Positions 49,917 through 64,000 of a stretch of DNA of 64,000 nucleotides are shown piece after piece; position 1 is the first letter of the stretch; each line of letters opens with the position of its first letter. The stretch is taken from the NCBI GenBank assembly GCA_000004985.1, contig GG738926.1, one strand, 5' to 3'. The notes under the pieces were generated by a model. The model had not been told where the DNA came from, ran no database searches, and saw only the letters and a list, made by a program, of their open reading frames with translations. The position numbers and the translations under genes are program-made. Source of the DNA: Naegleria gruberi. Taxonomy: Eukaryota.

Positions 49917-49990
49917 AGCCCGTCTAGCTCAGTCGGTAGAGCGCAAGGCTCTTAACCTTGTGGTCGTGGGTTCGACCCCCACGGTGGGCG
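49917..49990 (+). tRNA. tRNA-Lys (anticodon CTT); as I read it, 1 nt longer than the two minus-strand copies
   Basis: The body GCTCAGTCGGTAGAGC-G-CAAGG-CTCTTAA-CCTTG-TGGTC-GTGGGTTCGACCCCCAC-GGTGGGC-G is identical to the copies at 57051 and 59869. As printed, the 5' end is GCCCCGTC versus GCCCGTC in the other copies. Downstream T-runs (TTTTTT) look like a Pol III terminator. Confidence 0.8.
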
Positions 49991-51510: not shown

Positions 51511-53799
51511 TTACAGGTCCAACATTTCCATACACTTTTCCTTGATTGGTACAATTCTATGAGCTCTTCTATCTATGGTTTCAATCTTTTCGACAATTTC
51601 CATACATTTCTTGTATTGTTGATCACTATAACACTCAACTGCATCAGCATACAAATCACAAACATTGATTTCTGCCTCTGGAGCGTTCTCAGTTTCACAA
51701 AGGAGCTCATAAATTACTAATGGCTTGGTCTTACCCTTAACAGTAACTGAATCTAATGGAACACAGAATAATCTATTCGAAACTTGAACATAAGTAGCTT
51801 GACTGATGGCAAGATAAGTTCCATAATTCTTATTAATTCCTTCAATACGAGAAGCAGAGTTGACATTATCACCCAATGCTGTATAATTCATTCTTTCAGG
51901 AGTACCAACATTTCCAATAAAGGCAGATCCTGTGTGAACTCCAATTCTTGTCTTGAATTCTGGAAGACCCTTCTTTTCCCATACTCTATATAGATCTTTC
52001 AATTCTTTTTGAATTCTGAGTGCTGAATTACATGCTTTGTAAGCATGATCTTCAATTGCGAATGGAGCATTCCAGAATGCCATGATAGCATCACCTAATT
52101 TCAATGTCAGTTATCAATGAATAATTGAAACTTACCAATAAATTTATCGACTGTACCTCCAGATTCAATAATGTGATGGGTTGCTCTTTCTAGATATTCA
52201 GAAAGACATTGAACAAGAGTATTAGGATCCATCTTTTCACAAATTGTTGTAAAGTTTTCAATATCTGAGAAGAGCAAGGTCACATTCAATTCTTGCACTC
52301 CAAGACATGCTTCCTTTGAACTTTCTAATAAAGCTTTTACAAGAGAGCTAGGAACATATTTGTTAAATGAACGAAGACCAAATTTCATCTTGTCAACAGC
52401 TAATTGAATTTCTTTGACTTCTGTCAAGAAACTTCTACGTTGTTTTTTTGAAGAAATTTCCAATCTAGCAATCTTGTTAATATCCTTACTAAGGGATGAT
52501 AATGGAAAGGTAATCAACAAGGAGAACACAAAGACAACTGCAGCACCGAATATCATAATTCCCAAACTGATCAACAAACCATTTCTGAATTGAATCCAAA
52601 TGTCTCCCAACACGTCAATTTGTGGAGAGAAGATTACAATAATCCAATCCATTCCATTAATTGAGGATGAGTAACTGTATGGAATGGCATTAACGTCAAC
52701 ATCATAACCGTTCCATTGAATACTAGTAGAAGCAGTTCCATTCAATTTCTTCAAATCATACAAACTTAATAATTTCTGGTAACCTTCTTTTACAAAAGTT
52801 GTGTTGCCTTCGAGTGGAGTTGTCTGAACTGGAATTCCATTCTTAATAATGTATGAAGGATCAGAAGGAGATGAAGAACCAATCAATAATCCGTTTCTGT
52901 CTATTAACATGGTCACTGCATTCTTTGAAACTGGTGTGCTTTGCATGAAACTTGATAATGACCTGCCGAATGTAACAGAAGACCAAGCATAGTGGAATTC
53001 TCCATCAACCCAAAAAGGAGTCACATACGAAATGTAAAAATCTGGATCGACCTGATTGTAACCAACATCCGTCCAACTTTCTTTTGGATTCGAAACATTC
53101 ATCAATTTCCAATAGGGTGATTGAGTGTTATCAACACCAGGAACGTGTACAATCAAATTAACTTCACCACTTGGAGTAACCACAAAGAAATCAGCTCCTT
53201 CCTTTGACACAAAGAGTCCATTAGCAAAACTGTAAATGTTCTGAACTCCCCATGCATAGTAACCTGTCTTGTCTCCTACTGAAGTAAATATAGAATCTGG
53301 ATTCATACCCTTGAAAACATTATACATGTGATTTACAACTAAAGTGGATTGATCTGTTGTGTTGAATAGTTAAAACTTAAAAAACAGTGCTCTACTTACT
53401 ATGCAGATCCCACTTGAATGTCATGAATTGATTCTTATAAATAGTTGACAAATCAACGGCTGGCTTGAATTTAGTATTAAGGTAGTTTGCAAGATTCTTC
53501 GCATAACCTTCCTTTAATTTCGTGTTCATGTCCAACACTGATGTATTACCCGTGTTAAAGCCAATGAACCAGGTAATAATCAAAACGACGAGAACAACCA
53601 ACACGAGAACACACACCAGCAACAATCTAATAGAGAATAAAAAGTTGAGGAAGGAATAGATAGACCGAACAATGAAAGGAGTCTTATCTTCCCCGTAGAA
53701 TAGCGAATCGACAGAATGTGCCTTGTGGAGAGCATATACATCTGCCTTGGAACTGTTTTGTGGTGTTACCACTGGTTGAATACTTGGTGATTTGACCAT
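51511..53799 (-). CDS. Receptor-type class III adenylate/guanylate cyclase (two TM segments flanking an extracellular sensor domain), 3 exons
   Basis: Exons on the minus strand are 53400..53799 (ATG 53797-53799), 52136..53338 and 51511..52094. The introns are 53339..53399 and 52095..52135, both GTAAGT..TAG. TM1 is LLLVCVLVLVVLVVLIITWFIGF. An extracellular domain of about 300 aa and then TM2 (LLISLGIMIFGAAVVFVFSLLITF) follow. The cyclase motifs are VTLLFSDIENFTTICE, KFIG|DAIMAFW (split by intron 2), RIGVHTGSAFIGNVG and YTALGDNVNSASRIE. Confidence 0.75.
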
Positions 53800-54325
53800 G
53801 GAGTGTTGTATTAATGCAAGTAAATTCAATAGGCACAAGGTGTATAGTAGTTCAGGCAACTCAATGGTTGTATTAAGGGTGATTGTTGGTTTGTTTTTTA
53901 TGTGATTCTAACGTGGAGGAATATCTTGATCAAGTACATTCAATCAGCACGTAAACACTCATCATCTACAGTGAATCAGTGATGTGTGGGGTGAATTAAC
54001 TGAAGCAGGCTTCACTACGTTGAAAACCAAACACTTCCAACGTGCTTGGCAGCAACTGAATATTAAGGTACAAGAAAACCAATTTAAGCGAAGAGTCAAA
54101 CTTCCCCCTTAGGATATAAAAGTATATATACGGAGAGTAATCCATGAAGGGCAACATCGATTCTTGTAATATTTCCCCTCTGCTTATTTGGAAGATGCAG
54201 CTATCGGAACTAGATTATAAAAATTAAAGTCTAGATGAACTTGTTGATTCTTAGGAGAAATGAAACACATTTGGTTTATTTCATTCTTATTTAGTAAGAA
54301 TTTATGTTGATCAGGTAAAACGCAA

Positions 54326-57050: not shown

Positions 57051-57123
57051 CGCCCACCGTGGGGGTCGAACCCACGACCACAAGGTTAAGAGCCTTGCGC
57101 TCTACCGACTGAGCTAGACGGGC
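57051..57123 (-). tRNA. tRNA-Lys (anticodon CTT)
   Basis: The reverse complement is GCCCGTC-TA-GCTCAGTCGGTAGAGC-G-CAAGG-CTCTTAA-CCTTG-TGGTC-GTGGGTTCGACCCCCAC-GGTGGGC-G, 73 nt with a canonical cloverleaf. Plus-strand A-runs upstream act as its T-run terminator. Confidence 0.85.
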
Positions 57124-57482: not shown

Positions 57483-58286
57483 ATGCAAAATAGTCTGATG
57501 AAATATTTAATTGTAATCTTGCTATTAACAATAGCTTTCTCAACAAGAAAAGTTGATGCTCTCAACACAGCTGGCAAAGATGTATCCAAGTGTTCCTATC
57601 AGAATACTGTGAAATTGGGAACAACCATGACTCTGTACTGGAATGTCCTGAAGAATCCAAGTGATTCCACCAACCACATTCTTGAATTTGGTTTAATATG
57701 CGTCAATGCAGGATATTGTGCTATTGGATTTGATCATCCTCTTGACAAGGGAATGAATTCCATTGACACCATGTTTGCCTACACAATTTCTGGAACTGCC
57801 TATTTGAAAGATGCCTATTGTAAGACCAAACATGTGTTTCCAACAATTGATGAATTGAGTGGAGGAACCAATGATTATTTGGAAACCAATGGAGGAGTCA
57901 TTGATGGTCAGTATCATTATAGATGGAGCAGAAAAGTCAATACTGGAGATTCCCAAGATGCCACTTTCAAGAATTCAAATGTCTATGTCAGTTGGGCATA
58001 TCACACCAGTTTAACTTCAATTGGTGCTACTCACTCTGAAGCTGGACAGAACGTTCAGGTTAATTTTCTTGCCAACTCACCAACAGAAACTTACCTTTCT
58101 GGAATGATTTATAATTCTTCGTCTCCCTATCCTACTGATTCTTCTAATGATTCTGTGGTAATTGGTGTTGGACACAGATATCATTTATATGCATTGGCCA
58201 TTGCGGTCGGTTCAATGATCATTCTTGGCTTGATTTGTACCTACTTGGGTTCCATCCAATGTAGTTACTCACTTTTTACTTTATAG
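57483..58286 (+). CDS. Secreted/TM-anchored DOMON-like domain protein, 267 aa
   Basis: Real ATG and a signal peptide (MQNSLMKYLIVILLLTIAFSTRKVDA). The DOMON-like core is ..MTLYWNV....ILEFGLICVNAGYCAIGFDHP...MFAYTISG.. A C-terminal TM helix follows (LYALAIAVGSMIILGLICTYLGSI). It ends only 52 bp before the ferric reductase gene on the same strand. Confidence 0.6.
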   Translation: MQNSLMKYLIVILLLTIAFSTRKVDALNTAGKDVSKCSYQNTVKLGTTMTLYWNVLKNPSDSTNHILEFGLICVNAGYCAIGFDHPLDKGMNSIDTMFAYTISGTAYLKDAYCKTKHVFPTIDELSGGTNDYLETNGGVIDGQYHYRWSRKVNTGDSQDATFKNSNVYVSWAYHTSLTSIGATHSEAGQNVQVNFLANSPTETYLSGMIYNSSSPYPTDSSNDSVVIGVGHRYHLYALAIAVGSMIILGLICTYLGSIQCSYSLFTL

Positions 58287-58338
58287 AAAGGTAACCAAGT
58301 TAATTCCATATGATTTTCTAGGAGTTTCCTACATTAAC

Positions 58339-59757
58339 ATGTTCCTAGATTTGACAGTTGGCGAAATGATTGTCATTTCAGTCTATTGGGCATTGATGGT
58401 GATCTGGTTCAGTTATGGAGTTGTAAATCAAGCAGATCCTTTCATTCCAAGAAAGATTTCTTCTGGATATGTACAAATGATCATTTTGAATTACATTTTC
58501 CTGTTCATTCCTGTAACTAGATATAATGTCTTGCAAGCATTATTCGGTATTTCATTTGAAAGGTCTTTGAAATTCCACAAGTGGCTTGGTTTTATGATTT
58601 TTGGATTTGCTACTGGACATGGTGTGACGGAATTCGTTTCATTCAGAGATAACATACCTTACATGTTCTCTGCAGAGGATCAATTCCCACTATTTGGAAT
58701 AATTGCTTGGTTATCTCTTGGATTATTATTGCTCTTCTCTTTCAATCCTATTAGAAGAAAGCTCTATGAATTATTCTTAGTTTTCCACATTCCTCTAACT
58801 TTGGTCACTGTCACCTTCTCAATCATTCATGGAGAAGGTTGGATTAATTTACTTCCTTATATGGGATTTTCAATTATTTTAATGGTAATTGATTGGGCTT
58901 TGCGTTTAATTATTGGATTTGGAATTCCAACCAAGTTGACTCAGATATCATACGATGAGGATTCTGAAGTAACAACCTGTGTATTTGAAAAAAGATTCTT
59001 GACATTCTTCCATGATCCAAACCATGCTCACTATGTTTTCGTCTACATTCCACAAGTTTCCATCTACCAACTTCACCCAATGACAATCAGTTCCTCTGTA
59101 AAGCTTGAAAATGGAAATCATCAATTCATATGCCATATTAAACGAATGGAAGGAGGTACATGGGCAGCCAAGCTTGCTCAATTGGCTAAATCTAAGAAAA
59201 TGGTTTCTGAATACTACGGAGTCAGAGTGGAAGGAGCATATGGCAACTTGTCAATTCCATTCTTTGCAAAGAAGAATGATCAGAAGAGAACCATTGTATT
59301 CATAGTTGCGGGAATTGGAGCAACTCCTTGTAATGCTATTTTGACAGCACTAGAAGATCCAAAATATAACGATCCAACTCCTTATAAGGTATATGTTAAC
59401 TTTACAATGAGAAATGAGGCAACTTTGGCCCAAATGAGTAAGATTATGCAACAGAAACCAAATGTTGAATGCTCATTCTATGTAACTGGTGTTAAATCTG
59501 TGAAAAAATCAATAGAGTTAATGGAGAAGGGTCAGGATAATAGCGAAGACAAGAGATTTGTCAGAGGATCAAGACCTAACTATGTGGAATATTTGGAAAA
59601 GATCAAATCTCAAATTATTCAATCAAAATCACTTGAATATGTTTCTGTTTTTGCTTGTGGTCCATCTAAAATGATGAATGCAGTGCATAATGCTGTGTGG
59701 ACATGCAGTGATTCATCTTGCCGATTCGAGTTGCACAAAGAAGAATTTGAATTTTAA
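58339..59757 (+). CDS. Ferric reductase / NADPH oxidase (NOX)-like transmembrane oxidoreductase, 472 aa
   Basis: Real ATG. It has six TM helices with paired heme-ligand histidines (HKWLGFMIFGFATGHG ; FLVFHIPLTLVTVTFSIIHG). The FAD-binding motif is HPMTISS and the NAD(P)H-binding motif is IVAGIGATP, with C-terminal CGPxxM (FACGPSKMM). Confidence 0.8.
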   Translation: MFLDLTVGEMIVISVYWALMVIWFSYGVVNQADPFIPRKISSGYVQMIILNYIFLFIPVTRYNVLQALFGISFERSLKFHKWLGFMIFGFATGHGVTEFVSFRDNIPYMFSAEDQFPLFGIIAWLSLGLLLLFSFNPIRRKLYELFLVFHIPLTLVTVTFSIIHGEGWINLLPYMGFSIILMVIDWALRLIIGFGIPTKLTQISYDEDSEVTTCVFEKRFLTFFHDPNHAHYVFVYIPQVSIYQLHPMTISSSVKLENGNHQFICHIKRMEGGTWAAKLAQLAKSKKMVSEYYGVRVEGAYGNLSIPFFAKKNDQKRTIVFIVAGIGATPCNAILTALEDPKYNDPTPYKVYVNFTMRNEATLAQMSKIMQQKPNVECSFYVTGVKSVKKSIELMEKGQDNSEDKRFVRGSRPNYVEYLEKIKSQIIQSKSLEYVSVFACGPSKMMNAVHNAVWTCSDSSCRFELHKEEFEF

Positions 59758-59868: not shown

Positions 59869-59941
59869 CGCCCACTGTGGGGGTCGAACCCACGACCACA
59901 AGGTTAAGAGCCTTGCGCTCTACCGACTGAGCTAGACGGGC
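59869..59941 (-). tRNA. tRNA-Lys (anticodon CTT)
   Basis: It is identical to the 57051 copy except for one acceptor-stem substitution (G67->A), which changes a U-G pair to U-A. It is 73 nt. Confidence 0.85.
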
Positions 59942-60025: not shown

Positions 60026-61672
60026 CTAATACAATCGGATAAATGGTTTTGGTTCTTCGTAATAAACAATTCTATAAGGATAATCTCTCTTATAATAAGT
60101 GTTAGAACGGAATTCAATTGGATTAACTTCAACATTTGGAAAATGTGGTTGGAATAATCTTTCAATAATTGCTCTGTTGTCATTTACATTAACATAGTCC
60201 AATTTTGGGAATTTCAGACCGTGTACAGAGCACACATCAGCTGGAAAGTCCCTTTCTAATAAAACAAAATCAAAAGTAACTTTCTTGACGCATTGTGGAA
60301 TTCTATAAATGACATCCATCACAGCCTTTGGTTTAAGCTTGTCATTCTCCAATTCTCTTTCCAAATGAGGAGAAAATAGAACCAATTCTTCAACGTTACT
60401 GCAATTCTTCTCAAAAAACTTGTTTAGTTGAACTTCGTCCTTAAACCAAGTATACAATGGAATGTGCAAGACTTTGACATTTTTCAAAAATCTCTTTTCA
60501 TAACTGATATATTCATGGTAGACATCCTTAATCCAAACTACAGGATTTGGATCAAAATGGAAAGCATATTCAGTAATGGCAACCCTCTTGTCCATAACAT
60601 TTTCAGAATAGAAATCGAATAATGAAGATTTGATGACTTGGTCAAAGATGTGATAAGGTTGTAATGGTTTTTCGGATTTTCCCTTGGTGGAGTTGAATGC
60701 ATTCAAGTGTGAATCGATATTGTTGATAAAGTTTTCATAGGAAATGTCAAGATAATCACGTCTGGATAAACTTTTAGCTGCCAAATGTCTCCACAAACGG
60801 CAGGTGGAGGAAACTTGCATGACTGAATAAATTGGAAGGTAGGAAAAGACTGCATAGATGATTTCATCATTGATCAATTTGTAGAACATCTTGTTGACCT
60901 TGGTTTCATCCTTGAGCAGATCTTGATTCATCTTTAAGATTCTTCCAGTTTCTTCTTGTTTATCCAACTTGTAAGCATTCTCCAAATCGTTAAGGGATTG
61001 CTCACTTGCACTATTCATGAACAAGTAGGAAGATCCTCTCATATAATAACAATAGGCAACAGCTTTAGAATCAGCAGCTAGATAAATGTCATCAATGATT
61101 TTAACACATTCTGCGTATTGGCAGGAATTGTAAAGTGAAACTGCAATGTTGAAATCCAACTCTTCAGCACTGATTAGTGAACCAGTGGATGGTGCCTTGG
61201 AGAAGAAACTAGACCAAACCTTCTCATAGATTAGTTTGTTTTGTTCACAGCATGCATTAACTTTAGTTTCAATTTCGGATTTCAAGTGAGCATGTGTTGA
61301 ATCTTGCAACAAGTCTCTAGTCCTGATCAATAGTTTAGTAGCTTGATCAAAATCACATGCAATAGCATGACAACATGCCTCCAAATATGAGAAAACATAA
61401 ACATTTCCCACACTTTCGTCCATTTCCAAAGCCAATTCCATTGATCTTTTAGCTTCCTTTTCATGAGCAGCTTGTACTTCCAGGAATGCTCTCTGTACAT
61501 ACAAGATTGCTTTCACCTTCTTGTCACTTGCCTTCTTCAAATCTTCTTCGATTGATTGCATCGTTTTGCTCTCTCTATAATTTCTCAACATGCCCAAAAG
61601 TGATGATTTGGCCACGAGTGGACAACCAGTATAATGAAGAAAGAGTGAACTGAATGGAGTGTTTGCAACCAT
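60026..61672 (-). CDS. F-box protein with a TPR-like helical N-terminal region, 548 aa
   Basis: Real ATG at 61670-61672. A central F-box motif is present (IIYAVFSYLPIYSVMQVSSTCRLWRHLAAKSL). The N-terminal ~300 aa are helical-repeat-like. Confidence 0.6.
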   Translation of the reverse strand: MVANTPFSSLFLHYTGCPLVAKSSLLGMLRNYRESKTMQSIEEDLKKASDKKVKAILYVQRAFLEVQAAHEKEAKRSMELALEMDESVGNVYVFSYLEACCHAIACDFDQATKLLIRTRDLLQDSTHAHLKSEIETKVNACCEQNKLIYEKVWSSFFSKAPSTGSLISAEELDFNIAVSLYNSCQYAECVKIIDDIYLAADSKAVAYCYYMRGSSYLFMNSASEQSLNDLENAYKLDKQEETGRILKMNQDLLKDETKVNKMFYKLINDEIIYAVFSYLPIYSVMQVSSTCRLWRHLAAKSLSRRDYLDISYENFINNIDSHLNAFNSTKGKSEKPLQPYHIFDQVIKSSLFDFYSENVMDKRVAITEYAFHFDPNPVVWIKDVYHEYISYEKRFLKNVKVLHIPLYTWFKDEVQLNKFFEKNCSNVEELVLFSPHLERELENDKLKPKAVMDVIYRIPQCVKKVTFDFVLLERDFPADVCSVHGLKFPKLDYVNVNDNRAIIERLFQPHFPNVEVNPIEFRSNTYYKRDYPYRIVYYEEPKPFIRLY

Positions 61673-63109
61673 TGAATCTTATTGTTGTTTAAAGTTTGTT
61701 TTTTTGCTTTGGTTGTGATATTGTTTACGTTGAAGATTTTAAGTTGGTTTTGATTGTTTGTGAACAATATCCTATCATGAGAAAATGAAAATGGCAAAAC
61801 TGTTGTGGGTAATGTTTGTTTGTGATGTATCCCGAGTTGATGATTTCAAATAAATTAAAAGTACCTACAACGTAAATAGAAGGTCTGAAACAAATCATTA
61901 ATTTCTAAACAATGATACGGACGTGATGATTTCTCGCGTGATGAGGAATAATTATACTAGGCCATCTTGCATGTGCCAACGTCAAACCTACACATCTAAT
62001 GATTTTGGTAGTGTTTTATTGTTCTGCAAAACCAATAACAATTTGGTATTAACAATATTTTGATGATTGTTTTAACAGTGGTAAAATTGATAAAAAATTT
62101 TAAAAAGAAAAATTCTTCAACAAATCCAACTCTTTCTCAGTTGGTGATTTTCAACAGCAATACTTGATAACATTTAAAACGATTGGATGCAGAACATGGA
62201 GGTATAATATGGAAGCACCATTATTAGATTTTAGACAATTCTATCATCAATTGCGGATTTTGGAAAGCAATTATTAAATTTATAAAAACTTTTTTGTGGA
62301 TTCATGGCTGGAAACCTTCATCGTTATGAGTAATCATCAAGAATATAACAACAAAGTGGATGCGACCGTTTTATTTCAAGAAGATGACCATCAATTTTAA
62401 TTTTATAATTTTCATCAACATCAACAACATGTAGAACAAAAAGAACAACATTTCCTTGTTCTACATCATCAATTACATCACCCCAGAAAGTTTCAAAACT
62501 TTCCTTCGAGCAAGTGAAGAGCTGTAGAAGATGTAAGTAAAATTAATTTCAGCAAGCGAAAAACACCTTTGAACAAACTTGGTGAGGAGGACGAAGATTT
62601 GTTATCGTACCTCATCAGGATGGGTGATTTGCCAATGCTTTTCGAGCATTTTCCATAATTTGCCAAGTTGAATTTTCACATGCTTCCTAACATTAACCAT
62701 TCATCATCTACTTCTTTAATCTTCATCACCACAACAATAAATACATCCCAGTGATGTTATCTACCAACAGTTTTCTTCTTGTTAATTCATATCAACAGCT
62801 AACAAAGAGAATCATCAAGCCTTCCACCAACAACAAATTAGTCTTGCTTTCCTTGCAACTACATGTATGACAGGATAGACAAGCAACCTTCCTAACCGAT
62901 TTCATACCAATATTTAAAGTCATATCACAACCATTTTGTCAAGAAATATTAAAATAAGTGAAATGATTCTTTGCAGCTTGGATTCAACAACATTAGTAAC
63001 AGAGATGCTGACCAAAATTGGAAAAACTGATGTGAAACTTTGATCAACTTTGCTAAAAAGAGTTGTGACTACATTTCAACAGATTGGAATGTTATTACTC
63101 TTGCACATA

Positions 63110-63970
63110 TTACAATGACAACTTGTAATTTTTCATGTCAGCTTGTTTGGGAACAATCACCATGCATATTGTAGCAGTTATTTCCATCTTATCTTCTGGC
63201 TTACTCAACAATCTACCAGCTCCAAAAGAATGTTCATTGAAAATGTCCCCTTTCTTTTCAACTAATAGCTCTCTACAGAATAGCTTACCAGTTTCTGAAT
63301 GATACAAATCAATAATTTTCGGCAATTCTTCCTCATCATACTCATCCTCTTCCTCTTCCTCATCATAATCCAGGTTCTTACTACTAAATATAATAGTTCC
63401 ATAATACAAATCAAATAATTTAAATCTATTATTGCATCTTGTCAGAAAATCAATAATATTGGCATCATATTTTGTGGTGCATCGTTTAACATATTCCAGA
63501 AACGGCTCATTCTTTCCTCTTCTTGGGTGTTCATTCTCATCATCACTACCCATAATATAAACAGAGAATGGACACTCATGATACCTATTGGATTGTTCAA
63601 TAATAATTCTCAATATATCAGATCTATCTTTTGGATTCTCACTAAAACAAATCTGATTTACTCCACTTCCGATACTTAAAAAGAGAGCATCCAATCTTCT
63701 AGTCAATGCTGTTGGATAATAATCTTCATCTTCATTATTTCCATCAGATTCAGCATCGAAATCAGCAAGTATATCATAAGCTTCCTCTGAAATATCATCC
63801 GTAGTGCCAAATAATTTATCCTTGTATTTATCGTACTCATAATATTCTTCACCATTAATTATTCTTTTCCCTATTCTAGCATAATCATCTTCGGAATCTT
63901 CATCATCTTCCGAAGAAGGGTTTTCGTACTCGGAATTTTCTTCCTCATAATCAATTCTCTTTCTTTTCAT
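63110..63970 (-). CDS. Acidic (D/E-rich) hypothetical protein, 286 aa
   Basis: Real ATG at 63968-63970 with K/R-rich first residues (MKRKRI). It has long acidic tracts and no recognised domain. Confidence 0.5.
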   Translation of the reverse strand: MKRKRIDYEEENSEYENPSSEDDEDSEDDYARIGKRIINGEEYYEYDKYKDKLFGTTDDISEEAYDILADFDAESDGNNEDEDYYPTALTRRLDALFLSIGSGVNQICFSENPKDRSDILRIIIEQSNRYHECPFSVYIMGSDDENEHPRRGKNEPFLEYVKRCTTKYDANIIDFLTRCNNRFKLFDLYYGTIIFSSKNLDYDEEEEEDEYDEEELPKIIDLYHSETGKLFCRELLVEKKGDIFNEHSFGAGRLLSKPEDKMEITATICMVIVPKQADMKNYKLSL

Positions 63971-64000
63971 TTTTTTTAAAATTCTCTTAATTTATTTCAC

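Follow-up and report, generated by a model that had tools for sequence, protein, structure and literature searches.

Two neighbouring open reading frames of Naegleria gruberi are very probably the halves of one DOMON–ferric reductase gene split by a small indel

Introduction

Are two ORFs that lie 52 bp apart on the same strand of the Naegleria gruberi genome, one encoding a DOMON protein and the other a ferric reductase-like oxidoreductase, separate genes or one fusion? The question arises at positions 57483-59757 of a 64,000-nucleotide stretch of DNA (hereafter the window), which is the N. gruberi NEG-M reference. According to the ORF list, ORF1 occupies 57483..58286 (plus strand, 267 aa) and ORF2 58339..59757 (plus strand, 472 aa), leaving 58287..58338 between them. 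ORF1 is read in frame 0 and ORF2 in frame +1 relative to it, so that both the spacing and the difference in frame were correctly described in the initial annotation. Its remark that such a short gap is unusual for the window did not hold, as short gaps between ORFs of the same strand also occur at 52104/52107 and 53327/53392 (minus strand). Both of these minus-strand gaps correspond to introns in a cyclase-like gene, 41 and 46 nt long and with GTAAGT as the donor.

The combination of a DOMON domain with a ferric reductase (FRE) is already known, and the locus does not represent a new kind of system. Zhang et al. 2013 (PLoS One 8:e58126; PMC3591440) defined a DOMON-FRE clade and counted seven paralogues in N. 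gruberi; they also list Albugo F0X089 and Phytophthora D0MUZ3 in this clade and describe members with one and with two DOMON domains. Here, we find that ORF1 and ORF2 are very probably the halves of one N. gruberi DOMON-FRE gene, which is split by a small indel in 58234-58254, rather than separate genes or parts of a fusion made by splicing.

Results

Domain content of the two ORFs

Analysis of ORF1 bore out its reading as a signal peptide followed by a DOMON domain and a C-terminal TM helix, and ORF2 is indeed a six-TM oxidoreductase with matches to the Pfam families Ferric_reduct, FAD_binding_8 and NAD_binding_6 (Table 1). From 'NSLM...' on, the N-terminal part can be aligned with paralogue P0002, and residues 3-27 form a hydrophobic signal-like segment. 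The DOMON domain is placed on the extracellular side, with the signal-peptide-like segment preceding it and the additional helix TM0 coming after it; TM0 lines up with a hydrophobic helix in all 27 of 27 homologues. A PDB sequence search with the DOMON ORF alone as query returned a chance match only, and the family profile reaches the DOMON domain of dopamine beta-hydroxylase (4zel) at 8.4e-7. His184, located just beyond the Pfam DOMON envelope, is invariant in 28/28 DOMON-FRE proteins, and Met91 is present in 19/28. The DOMON domain would bind haem, with Met91 and His184 as candidate ligands.

In the part encoded by ORF2, the four haem histidines H365, H379, H435 and H449 are invariant in 28/28 sequences. 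H531 and P532 of the HPMT motif are invariant in both alignments and T534 in the 8-sequence alignment only; G610, G612, T614, C725 and G726 of the NADPH-binding domain are invariant in the family alignment. AF2 prediction of the repaired protein (see below) with the 28-sequence alignment yielded a mean pLDDT of 81.5 and a pTM of 0.70, and this run was used throughout; an earlier one on the 8-sequence alignment was too poor to interpret (pLDDT 52). TM0 and the linker that follows it are predicted as ordered helices. For TM0 the block-mean pLDDT is about 88-89 in residues 231-250 and 75 in 251-260, and for the linker helices 260-267 and 281-288 the pLDDT is about 75-86. The fold of the model matches NOX2, NOX5, DUOX1 and SpNOX.

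Table 1. Features of the DOMON–ferric reductase locus, with positions in the window and residue numbers of the encoded protein
Feature	Position	Strand	Evidence
Gene part in frame 0: signal peptide (about residues 1-26), DOMON, TM0	57483..58247	+	ORF list, paralogue alignment, hydropathy
DOMON domain, residues 48-174	57624..58004	+	Pfam PF03351, E = 3.8e-18
Candidate haem ligands Met91 and His184	57753-57755 and 58032-58034	+	Family conservation
133-nt 'intron' of the public NCBI/JGI model P0001	58158..58290	+	Judged spurious
TM0, extra helix, residues 233-255, chain running from outside to cytosol	58179..58247	+	Hydropathy peak 2.42, AF2 helix
Frame break interval, frame 0 to +1	58234..58254	+	Junction scoring, frame translations
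Out-of-frame ORF1 tail GSIQCSYSLFTL with stop	58248..58286	+	No homology to any family member (alignment, frame translations)
Conserved cytosolic linker VPSNVVTHFLLYRKVTKLIPYDFLGVSYINMFLDLT, frame +1	58249..58356	+	Matches KSNIITHFLFYRKISKVIPYDFPLVSYVNQFLDLT in P0002, equivalents in P0003-P0013
Six-TM ferric reductase domain	58357..58920	+	Pfam PF01794, E = 8.8e-22
Haem histidines H365, H379, H435, H449	58576-58578, 58618-58620, 58786-58788, 58828-58830	+	
FAD-binding domain, HPMT motif	59026..59247	+	Pfam PF08022, E = 5.6e-6
NADPH-binding domain (GIGATP, CGP motifs) and stop codon	59290..59757	+	Pfam PF08030, E = 3e-10

A conserved linker runs across the gap

The 52 bp had been taken for intergenic DNA. 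They are in fact part of a conserved coding linker in the frame of ORF2, which is open back to 58234, and the 35 codons upstream of its ATG encode the linker of the family (PSNVVTHFLLYRKVTKLIPYDF...). The whole gap as well as the start Met of ORF2 (58339) fall within this linker, and the Met itself is not conserved, being replaced by Q, V, S or P in homologues. Both frames are open over 58234-58286. Frame 0 reaches its stop at 58284-58286 and the conserved continuation is in frame +1; the frames switch upstream of the ORF1 stop, and the conserved protein sequence crosses the gap uninterrupted.

Removal of one base restores a 757-aa protein. Single-base deletions anywhere in 58234-58254 gave junction scores of 839-862, the best of them dropping one G of the GGG at 58247-58249. 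The best fix overall was re-insertion of CCTACTTG, an 8-nt tandem copy, after 58247, which lets the protein align with the paralogues without a gap and scores 935; this model is based on alignment parsimony, and the gain in score mostly reflects an avoided gap penalty plus one aligned Pro/Thr. The assembled sequence lacks three residues that are present in all close homologues. The most economical lesion would be the loss of one tandem 8-mer copy, converting A-CCTACTTG-CCTACTTG-GGTT to A-CCTACTTG-GGTT, which accounts for both the +1 shift and the three missing residues. The intact allele would then read ACCTACTTGCCTACTTGGGTT at the junction. Instead of an 8-nt loss, a 1-nt insertion may have occurred on top of an older 9-nt deletion.

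Homologues are single polypeptides

A search of homologues for DOMON-FRE fusions, as proposed earlier, revealed a single DOMON–TM–FRE polypeptide in every homologue found. Among the 150 best representative clusters, 28 align in one stretch from the DOMON domain to the C-terminal part of the profile, and the order DOMON, Ferric_reduct, FAD, NAD is present in 10/10 tested of those 28. Albugo F0X089 is in the set, as are Willaertia magna and a further N. gruberi paralogue; F0X089 corresponds to P0093 and aligns in one piece across profile positions 51-710. A second, word-indexed search with the alignment as query produced fewer matches than the first. The N. gruberi paralogues are 64-71% identical. 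N. gruberi, Willaertia and Albugo possess one DOMON domain, N. fowleri and N. lovaniensis two. In genomic DNA, the genes of N. fowleri (L001/L002, 3001-6021) and of the metagenomic sequence L003 (718-2829) are uninterrupted ORFs, and the N. lovaniensis gene contains one 70-nt intron with a GTGAGT donor in the first DOMON domain, away from the junction. Thus, the earlier idea of a DOMON/FRE fusion was right in that the ORFs belong together and homologues are single-chain proteins; the splicing or bicistronic route that it envisaged has no support in the sequence.

Mutation, assembly error or fission

Neither half has lost any of the residues that are invariant in the family, and the break must therefore be either recent or artefactual. 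Exact-sequence look-ups of P0001, P0002, ORF1 and ORF2 for independent contigs or transcripts found none, and P0001 is the only homologue match above 90% identity. Judging from the sequence, we lean slightly towards a real mutation over an assembly error, because an 8-nt loss is atypical of base-calling errors and the family has spare paralogues. The gene would then be a recently formed pseudogene or, in a heterozygous diploid, a null allele.

If the indel is real, the gene may also have undergone fission. ORF1 would then give a DOMON protein that is anchored in the membrane and resembles plant AIR12 in form, a stand-alone FRE would start at ATG 58339, and the two might re-associate in the membrane. 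Although we consider this improbable, both ORFs are intact, free of additional stops and complete in their invariant residues, and DOMON-less FRE as well as DOMON-only proteins exist (PMC3591440; AIR12, PMC10784544). However, the halves would be just as intact if the lesion were very recent or the assembly wrong. The ATG of ORF2 lies just ahead of TM1 and would yield a complete 6-TM/FAD/NADPH core, but this Met is the non-conserved one, and a terminator, a promoter and a 5' UTR would need to be fitted into 52 bp of conserved coding sequence. A promoter/terminator scan of the junction found nothing; the scan is of bacterial type and hence uninformative for a eukaryote. Reinitiation after an 800-nt ORF, in turn, is rare for eukaryotic ribosomes. 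There is only a slim chance that the indel is real and that both pieces are used and re-associate. If true, a three-haem trans-membrane electron conduit would have split naturally in two, which would show that a DOMON module is able to work in trans with a NOX/FRE core.

The intron of the public gene model is very probably spurious

P0001, deposited as 'predicted protein [Naegleria gruberi]', is identical to the window sequence apart from its modelled intron and joins 57627..58157 exactly to 58291..59757. The initial annotation had found no in-frame GT..AG pair that would remove the stop by splicing. A systematic scan finds 54 GT/GC..AG combinations with an open fused frame, one of which is used by the NCBI/JGI model; as noted before, the GT at 58291 sits 3' of the ORF1 stop codon. 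Nevertheless, a spliced fusion is highly unlikely. None of the 54 splices reproduces the conserved junction, and every candidate, among them 58158..58290 (133 nt), 58264..58321 (58 nt) and 58249..58264 (16 nt), either drops conserved TM0/linker residues or retains the non-homologous frame-0 tail. All score below simple indel repair, with 770 for the best, 16-nt intron and 374 for the 58-nt one. The intron of the public model was rejected, as its excision costs both TM0 and the THFLLYRK linker and its score is 281 vs 862-935. Most of the junction is kept by the 16-nt candidate alone, which is far below the roughly 30-nt intron minimum applied in N. fowleri read mapping and the mean N. gruberi intron of 203 bp (PMC8296547). 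Moreover, the candidate donors GTAATT (that of 58158..58290), GTTACT and GTTCCA differ from the GTAAGT of both in-window introns, which is close to the GTGAGT of N. lovaniensis, and homologues lack an intron at the junction.

The defects of the public model arise because the gene predictor bridged the frame break with a false intron. Its 665 aa lack TM0 and the conserved linker and also, since the model starts at Met49, the signal peptide. Consequently the predicted topology is wrong, as the DOMON domain would end up on the opposite side of the membrane.

Finally, programmed +1 ribosomal frameshifting near 58247-58251 could in principle produce the full-length protein from the sequence as assembled, as the required shift is +1 and the frames overlap, but is barely credible, because TTG-GGT-TCC is no known +1 slippery or hungry-codon context, the switch point has no stop or rare codon, RNA folding of the junction revealed no notable structure (z = -1.44), all relatives are read in a single frame and need no frameshift, and a deletion better accounts for the three-residue deficit.

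Comparison with known systems

The closest relatives form the DOMON-containing eFRE subfamily (model M10), which is known from the same organism and whose members likewise consist of an extracellular DOMON domain followed by FRD, FAD and NADPH domains. The N. gruberi protein shares with them the N-terminal DOMON domain, the ferric reductase TM domain with four His, the C-terminal FAD and NADPH domains and the clade relationship. The subfamily is also characterized by a single polypeptide, which is found in the homologues and is obtained here only after repair of the indel in 58234-58254. In contrast to the subfamily, the assembled copy is frame-broken between TM0 and linker, and the deposited model masks this break through its spurious intron and late start codon.

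CYBDOM proteins of plants and animals (HYP1, CRR, SDR2/FRRS1) combine cytochrome b561 with DOMON. In these proteins the b-haem of the extracellular DOMON domain is the terminal relay of a trans-membrane di-haem conduit that reduces extracellular Fe(III) or Cu(II); a conserved Met/His pair is the candidate ligand set of the DOMON haem, and M90/H174 of HYP1 compare with M91/H184 here (PMC10784544). However, the membrane parts are not homologous: the CYBDOM core is a cytochrome b561 that uses cytosolic ascorbate, whereas the Naegleria protein has an FRD of the NOX/FRE type, served by NADPH via FAD on the same chain. Indeed, Pfam reported Ferric_reduct and no b561 family at E <= 0.1.

DUOX1/2 resemble the Naegleria protein in several respects: the N-terminal domain is extracellular and redox-related, TM0 and a cytosolic linker are present, and the 6-TM NOX core is joined to FAD and NADPH domains. 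For this core, both sequence and fold comparison place DUOX1 among the best matches. They differ in that their ectodomain is peroxidase-like, where the Naegleria protein has DOMON, and in the EF-hands of their linker; the Naegleria linker is short and has none. In addition, the Naegleria protein lacks the NOX signature His. In NOX2 this residue is His-119, which follows the outer haem His of TM3 by four positions, and the TM5 histidines 209/222 are 13 apart (PMC3591440). The corresponding residue here, H379+4, is Glu383 (HGVTEF), with E or M in homologues, and H435 and H449 of TM5 are 14 residues apart. Yeast FRE1 and plant FRO2 share the FRD, FAD and NADPH core, the four haem histidines and the FRE-type TM3 signature, but lack the DOMON domain and TM0.

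Discussion

Taken together, the repaired 757-760-aa sequence and the family alignment provide a clean definition of the DOMON–TM0–linker–FRE architecture and also reveal the invariant DOMON histidine H184 and a testable Met/His haem site. The intact protein would comprise a signal peptide, an extracellular DOMON domain, TM0, a cytosolic linker of ~35 residues, a six-TM di-haem FRD and cytosolic FAD and NADPH domains, with the indel breaking the frame at the cytosolic end of TM0. Electrons would pass from cytosolic NADPH via FAD to the inner haem (H365/H435) and further to the outer haem (H379/H449). From here, they may reach a third b-haem in the DOMON domain, putatively held by Met91/His184, and finally an extracellular acceptor, for which Fe(III) chelates appear most likely. 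A three-haem conduit that ends in an Fe(III)-reducing DOMON domain has a precedent in the CYBDOM proteins (PMC10784544).

The main value of our analysis lies in annotation hygiene, its practical outcome being a corrected gene model. Extracellular ferric reductase activity has been reported for N. fowleri (PMC7326272). As far as can be told from sequence comparison, the DOMON-FRE family is a candidate source of such activity in Naegleria, including this pathogen.

The two ORFs as probable parts of one coding sequence

The ORF listing and Pfam analysis agreed with the initial annotation on the features of ORF1 (the DOMON-side half) and ORF2 (the ferric-reductase-side half), their 52-bp spacing on the plus strand and their differing frames, ORF2 lying in frame +1 relative to ORF1 (see table; DOMON domain of ORF1, E = 3.8e-18). 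As to whether they represent separate genes or one fusion, the frame of ORF2 is open upstream as far as 58234, and its translation upstream of and into ORF2 reads FVPTWVPSNVVTHFLLYRKVTKLIPYDFLGVSYIN-M-FLDLTVGE. The paralogues carry ...KSNIITHFLFYRKISKVIPYDFPLVSYVNQFLDLTIGE at the same stretch, and N. fowleri, N. lovaniensis, Willaertia and the metagenomic proteins have linker-equivalent sequence too, showing that the 52 bp are conserved coding sequence. The starting methionine of ORF2 is a normal internal residue, homologues having Q, V, S or P at this position, and the final twelve residues of ORF1, GSIQCSYSLFTL, have no match within the family. Homology crosses from frame 0 (…GLICTYL) to frame +1 (…PSNVVTHF) inside 58234-58254. 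We consider it very likely that the locus is one gene with a broken frame; functional fission into two proteins appears improbable.

Features of the DOMON–FRE locus and its surroundings
Feature	Position	Strand	Description
tRNA-Lys(CTT)	49918-49990	+	one of three nearly identical copies
Cyclase-like gene	51511-53859	-	three same-strand ORFs = exons; 753-aa membrane protein
Intron, cyclase-like gene	53399-53354	-	46 nt, GTAAGT donor
Intron, cyclase-like gene	52135-52095	-	41 nt, GTAAGT donor
tRNA-Lys(CTT)	57051-57123	-	one of three nearly identical copies
ORF1	57483-58286	+	267 aa; hydrophobic N-terminus, DOMON, strongly hydrophobic C-terminal helix
ORF2	58339-59757	+	472 aa; Ferric_reduct, FAD_binding_8, NAD_binding_6 (Pfam)
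tRNA-Lys(CTT)	59869-59941	-	one of three nearly identical copies
F-box ORF	60026-61672	-	548 aa; PF12937, E = 3.1e-7

Homologues and public gene models

When a provisional fusion of ORF1 and ORF2 was used to search for homologues, the best-matching locus proved to be that of the N. gruberi protein P0001 ('predicted protein [Naegleria gruberi]'), which corresponds with exact identity to window 57627..58157 plus 58291..59757 and thereby identifies the window as the NEG-M reference. The public model thus already joins both ORFs, using a 133-nt 'intron' (58158..58290) and a start at Met49. This 'intron' eliminates TM0, the extra helix between DOMON and linker, together with the linker itself, and the late start loses the signal peptide, so that the DOMON domain would be misplaced. 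Further matches were the N. gruberi paralogues P0002 and P0003, two metagenomic proteins, and proteins of ~1006 aa each from N. lovaniensis and N. fowleri, in which two DOMON domains are arranged in tandem (L004 2001-5094, 1007 aa, and L001/L002 3001-6021, 1006 aa, respectively). In the N. fowleri gene and a metagenomic gene (L003 718-2829), a single unbroken ORF spans DOMON through the C-terminus, and the N. lovaniensis gene has one 70-nt GTGAGT...TAG intron within the first DOMON domain, away from the junction. An Fcf1/PIN gene adjoins the homologue in both N. fowleri and N. lovaniensis, whose loci are therefore syntenic mutually and not with the window. An exhaustive profile search yielded 8755 relatives; among the best 150 clusters, 28 showed a single alignment extending from DOMON into the C-terminal region of the profile, and all ten tested of these 28 have DOMON, Ferric_reduct, FAD and NAD domains in this order. 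Single-chain members include an additional N. gruberi paralogue, Willaertia magna and Albugo laibachii F0X089. The public models of P0002 and P0003 (397-kb scaffold, outside the window) also look defective, the FAD-binding domain of the former being short of ~85 residues and the latter beginning mid-DOMON. NEG-M gene models of the DOMON–FRE family need re-annotation.

Nature of the frame break

Candidate repairs were scored via junction alignment to six homologues. Re-insertion of CCTACTTG after 58247 reached 935 and one-base deletions at any position in 58234-58254 reached 839-862; the 12 top-ranked candidates of a first repair scan were all single-base deletions. Removing one G from GGG (58247-58249) gives a 757-aa protein without three residues found in all close homologues. 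Re-inserted CCTACTTG, which makes the 8-mer tandemly duplicated, gives TYLPTWVPSNVVTHF, aligning ungapped with TYLPTAFKSNIITHF of P0002. A single slipped-strand deletion of 8 nt would account for the +1 shift and the three missing residues alike, a model that we infer by parsimony and that was not observed as such. Within the one-gene reading, a real lesion is only slightly favoured over an assembly error. Every invariant residue is retained in both halves, so the break is either very recent or an artefact. A null allele is conceivable, given that Naegleria is reportedly a heterozygous diploid (PMC9928731).

The initial annotation had found no in-frame GT..AG splice, a claim that did not hold: 54 GT/GC..AG pairs yield an open fused frame. 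However, introns bridging the ORFs score below the indel repairs (770 for the best, of 16 nt; 374 for the 58-nt intron 58264..58321; 281 for the public-model intron) and are unlike real Naegleria introns, for which both introns of the cyclase-like gene (see table) provide a local reference and a mean length of 203 bp is given for N. gruberi (PMC8296547). A spliced fusion is thus very unlikely. Programmed +1 frameshifting, supported by neither junction context nor RNA structure and needed by no relative, is hardly credible.

Neighbouring features

Two tRNA-Lys(CTT) genes in the same orientation as each other flank the DOMON–FRE gene. A ~25-nt conserved block lies directly 5' of all three copies, on the plus strand TTTCAnnnnnAATATCAACTTTTTGTA immediately after 57123 and 59941, and could represent a pol III upstream element or, alternatively, a remnant of segmental duplication. 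Removal of both introns from the cyclase-like gene restores one continuous 753-aa open frame, on which the splice check rests; the first exon junction falls inside cyclase-like sequence (...FIG/DAIMAFWNAP), and the motif FIGDAIMAFWNAP suggests that the product is a class III nucleotide cyclase. The F-box ORF is immediately downstream of the DOMON–FRE gene and convergent. GC skew is strongest within the window in its final 2 kb (-0.219 at 62001-64000), a drop probably caused by a gene on the minus strand (ORF 63110-63970).

Predicted structure and family

The model of the repaired protein (mean pLDDT 81.5, pTM 0.70; 28-sequence alignment) comprises a DOMON beta-sandwich, TM0 (residues 233-255), linker helices 260-267 and 281-288, six TM helices and a ferredoxin-reductase-like dehydrogenase domain. 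Invariant across the 28 sequences are H365/H379 (TM3) and H435/H449 (TM5) in the membrane core, H531 and P532 (HPxT motif), G610, G612 and T614 (GxGxTP motif), C725 and G726 (CGP motif) and His184 of DOMON, where Met91 is present in 19. NOX2, NOX5, DUOX1 and SpNOX match the core in both sequence and fold. By the criteria of PMC3591440, a NOX-type assignment was rejected in favour of FRE-type, since the position four residues past the outer TM3 His, where NOX proteins have their signature His, holds Glu, and the two TM5 histidines are spaced by 14.

In CYBDOM proteins, the DOMON b-haem (M90/H174 in HYP1) terminates a three-haem conduit reducing Fe(III) (PMC10784544). By analogy, electrons would likely pass from NADPH via FAD, two FRD haems and the DOMON haem to Fe(III) outside the cell. 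Naegleria has extracellular ferric reductase activity, to which the respective paper assigned no gene (PMC7326272).

The DOMON–FRE subfamily was already described by Zhang et al. 2013 (PMC3591440), so the architecture is not new, and the locus is very probably one of their seven N. gruberi paralogues. What is useful here is the corrected gene model and the position of the lesion: the locus belongs to an unremarkable gene family that was known before and is viewed here through a disrupted reading frame.
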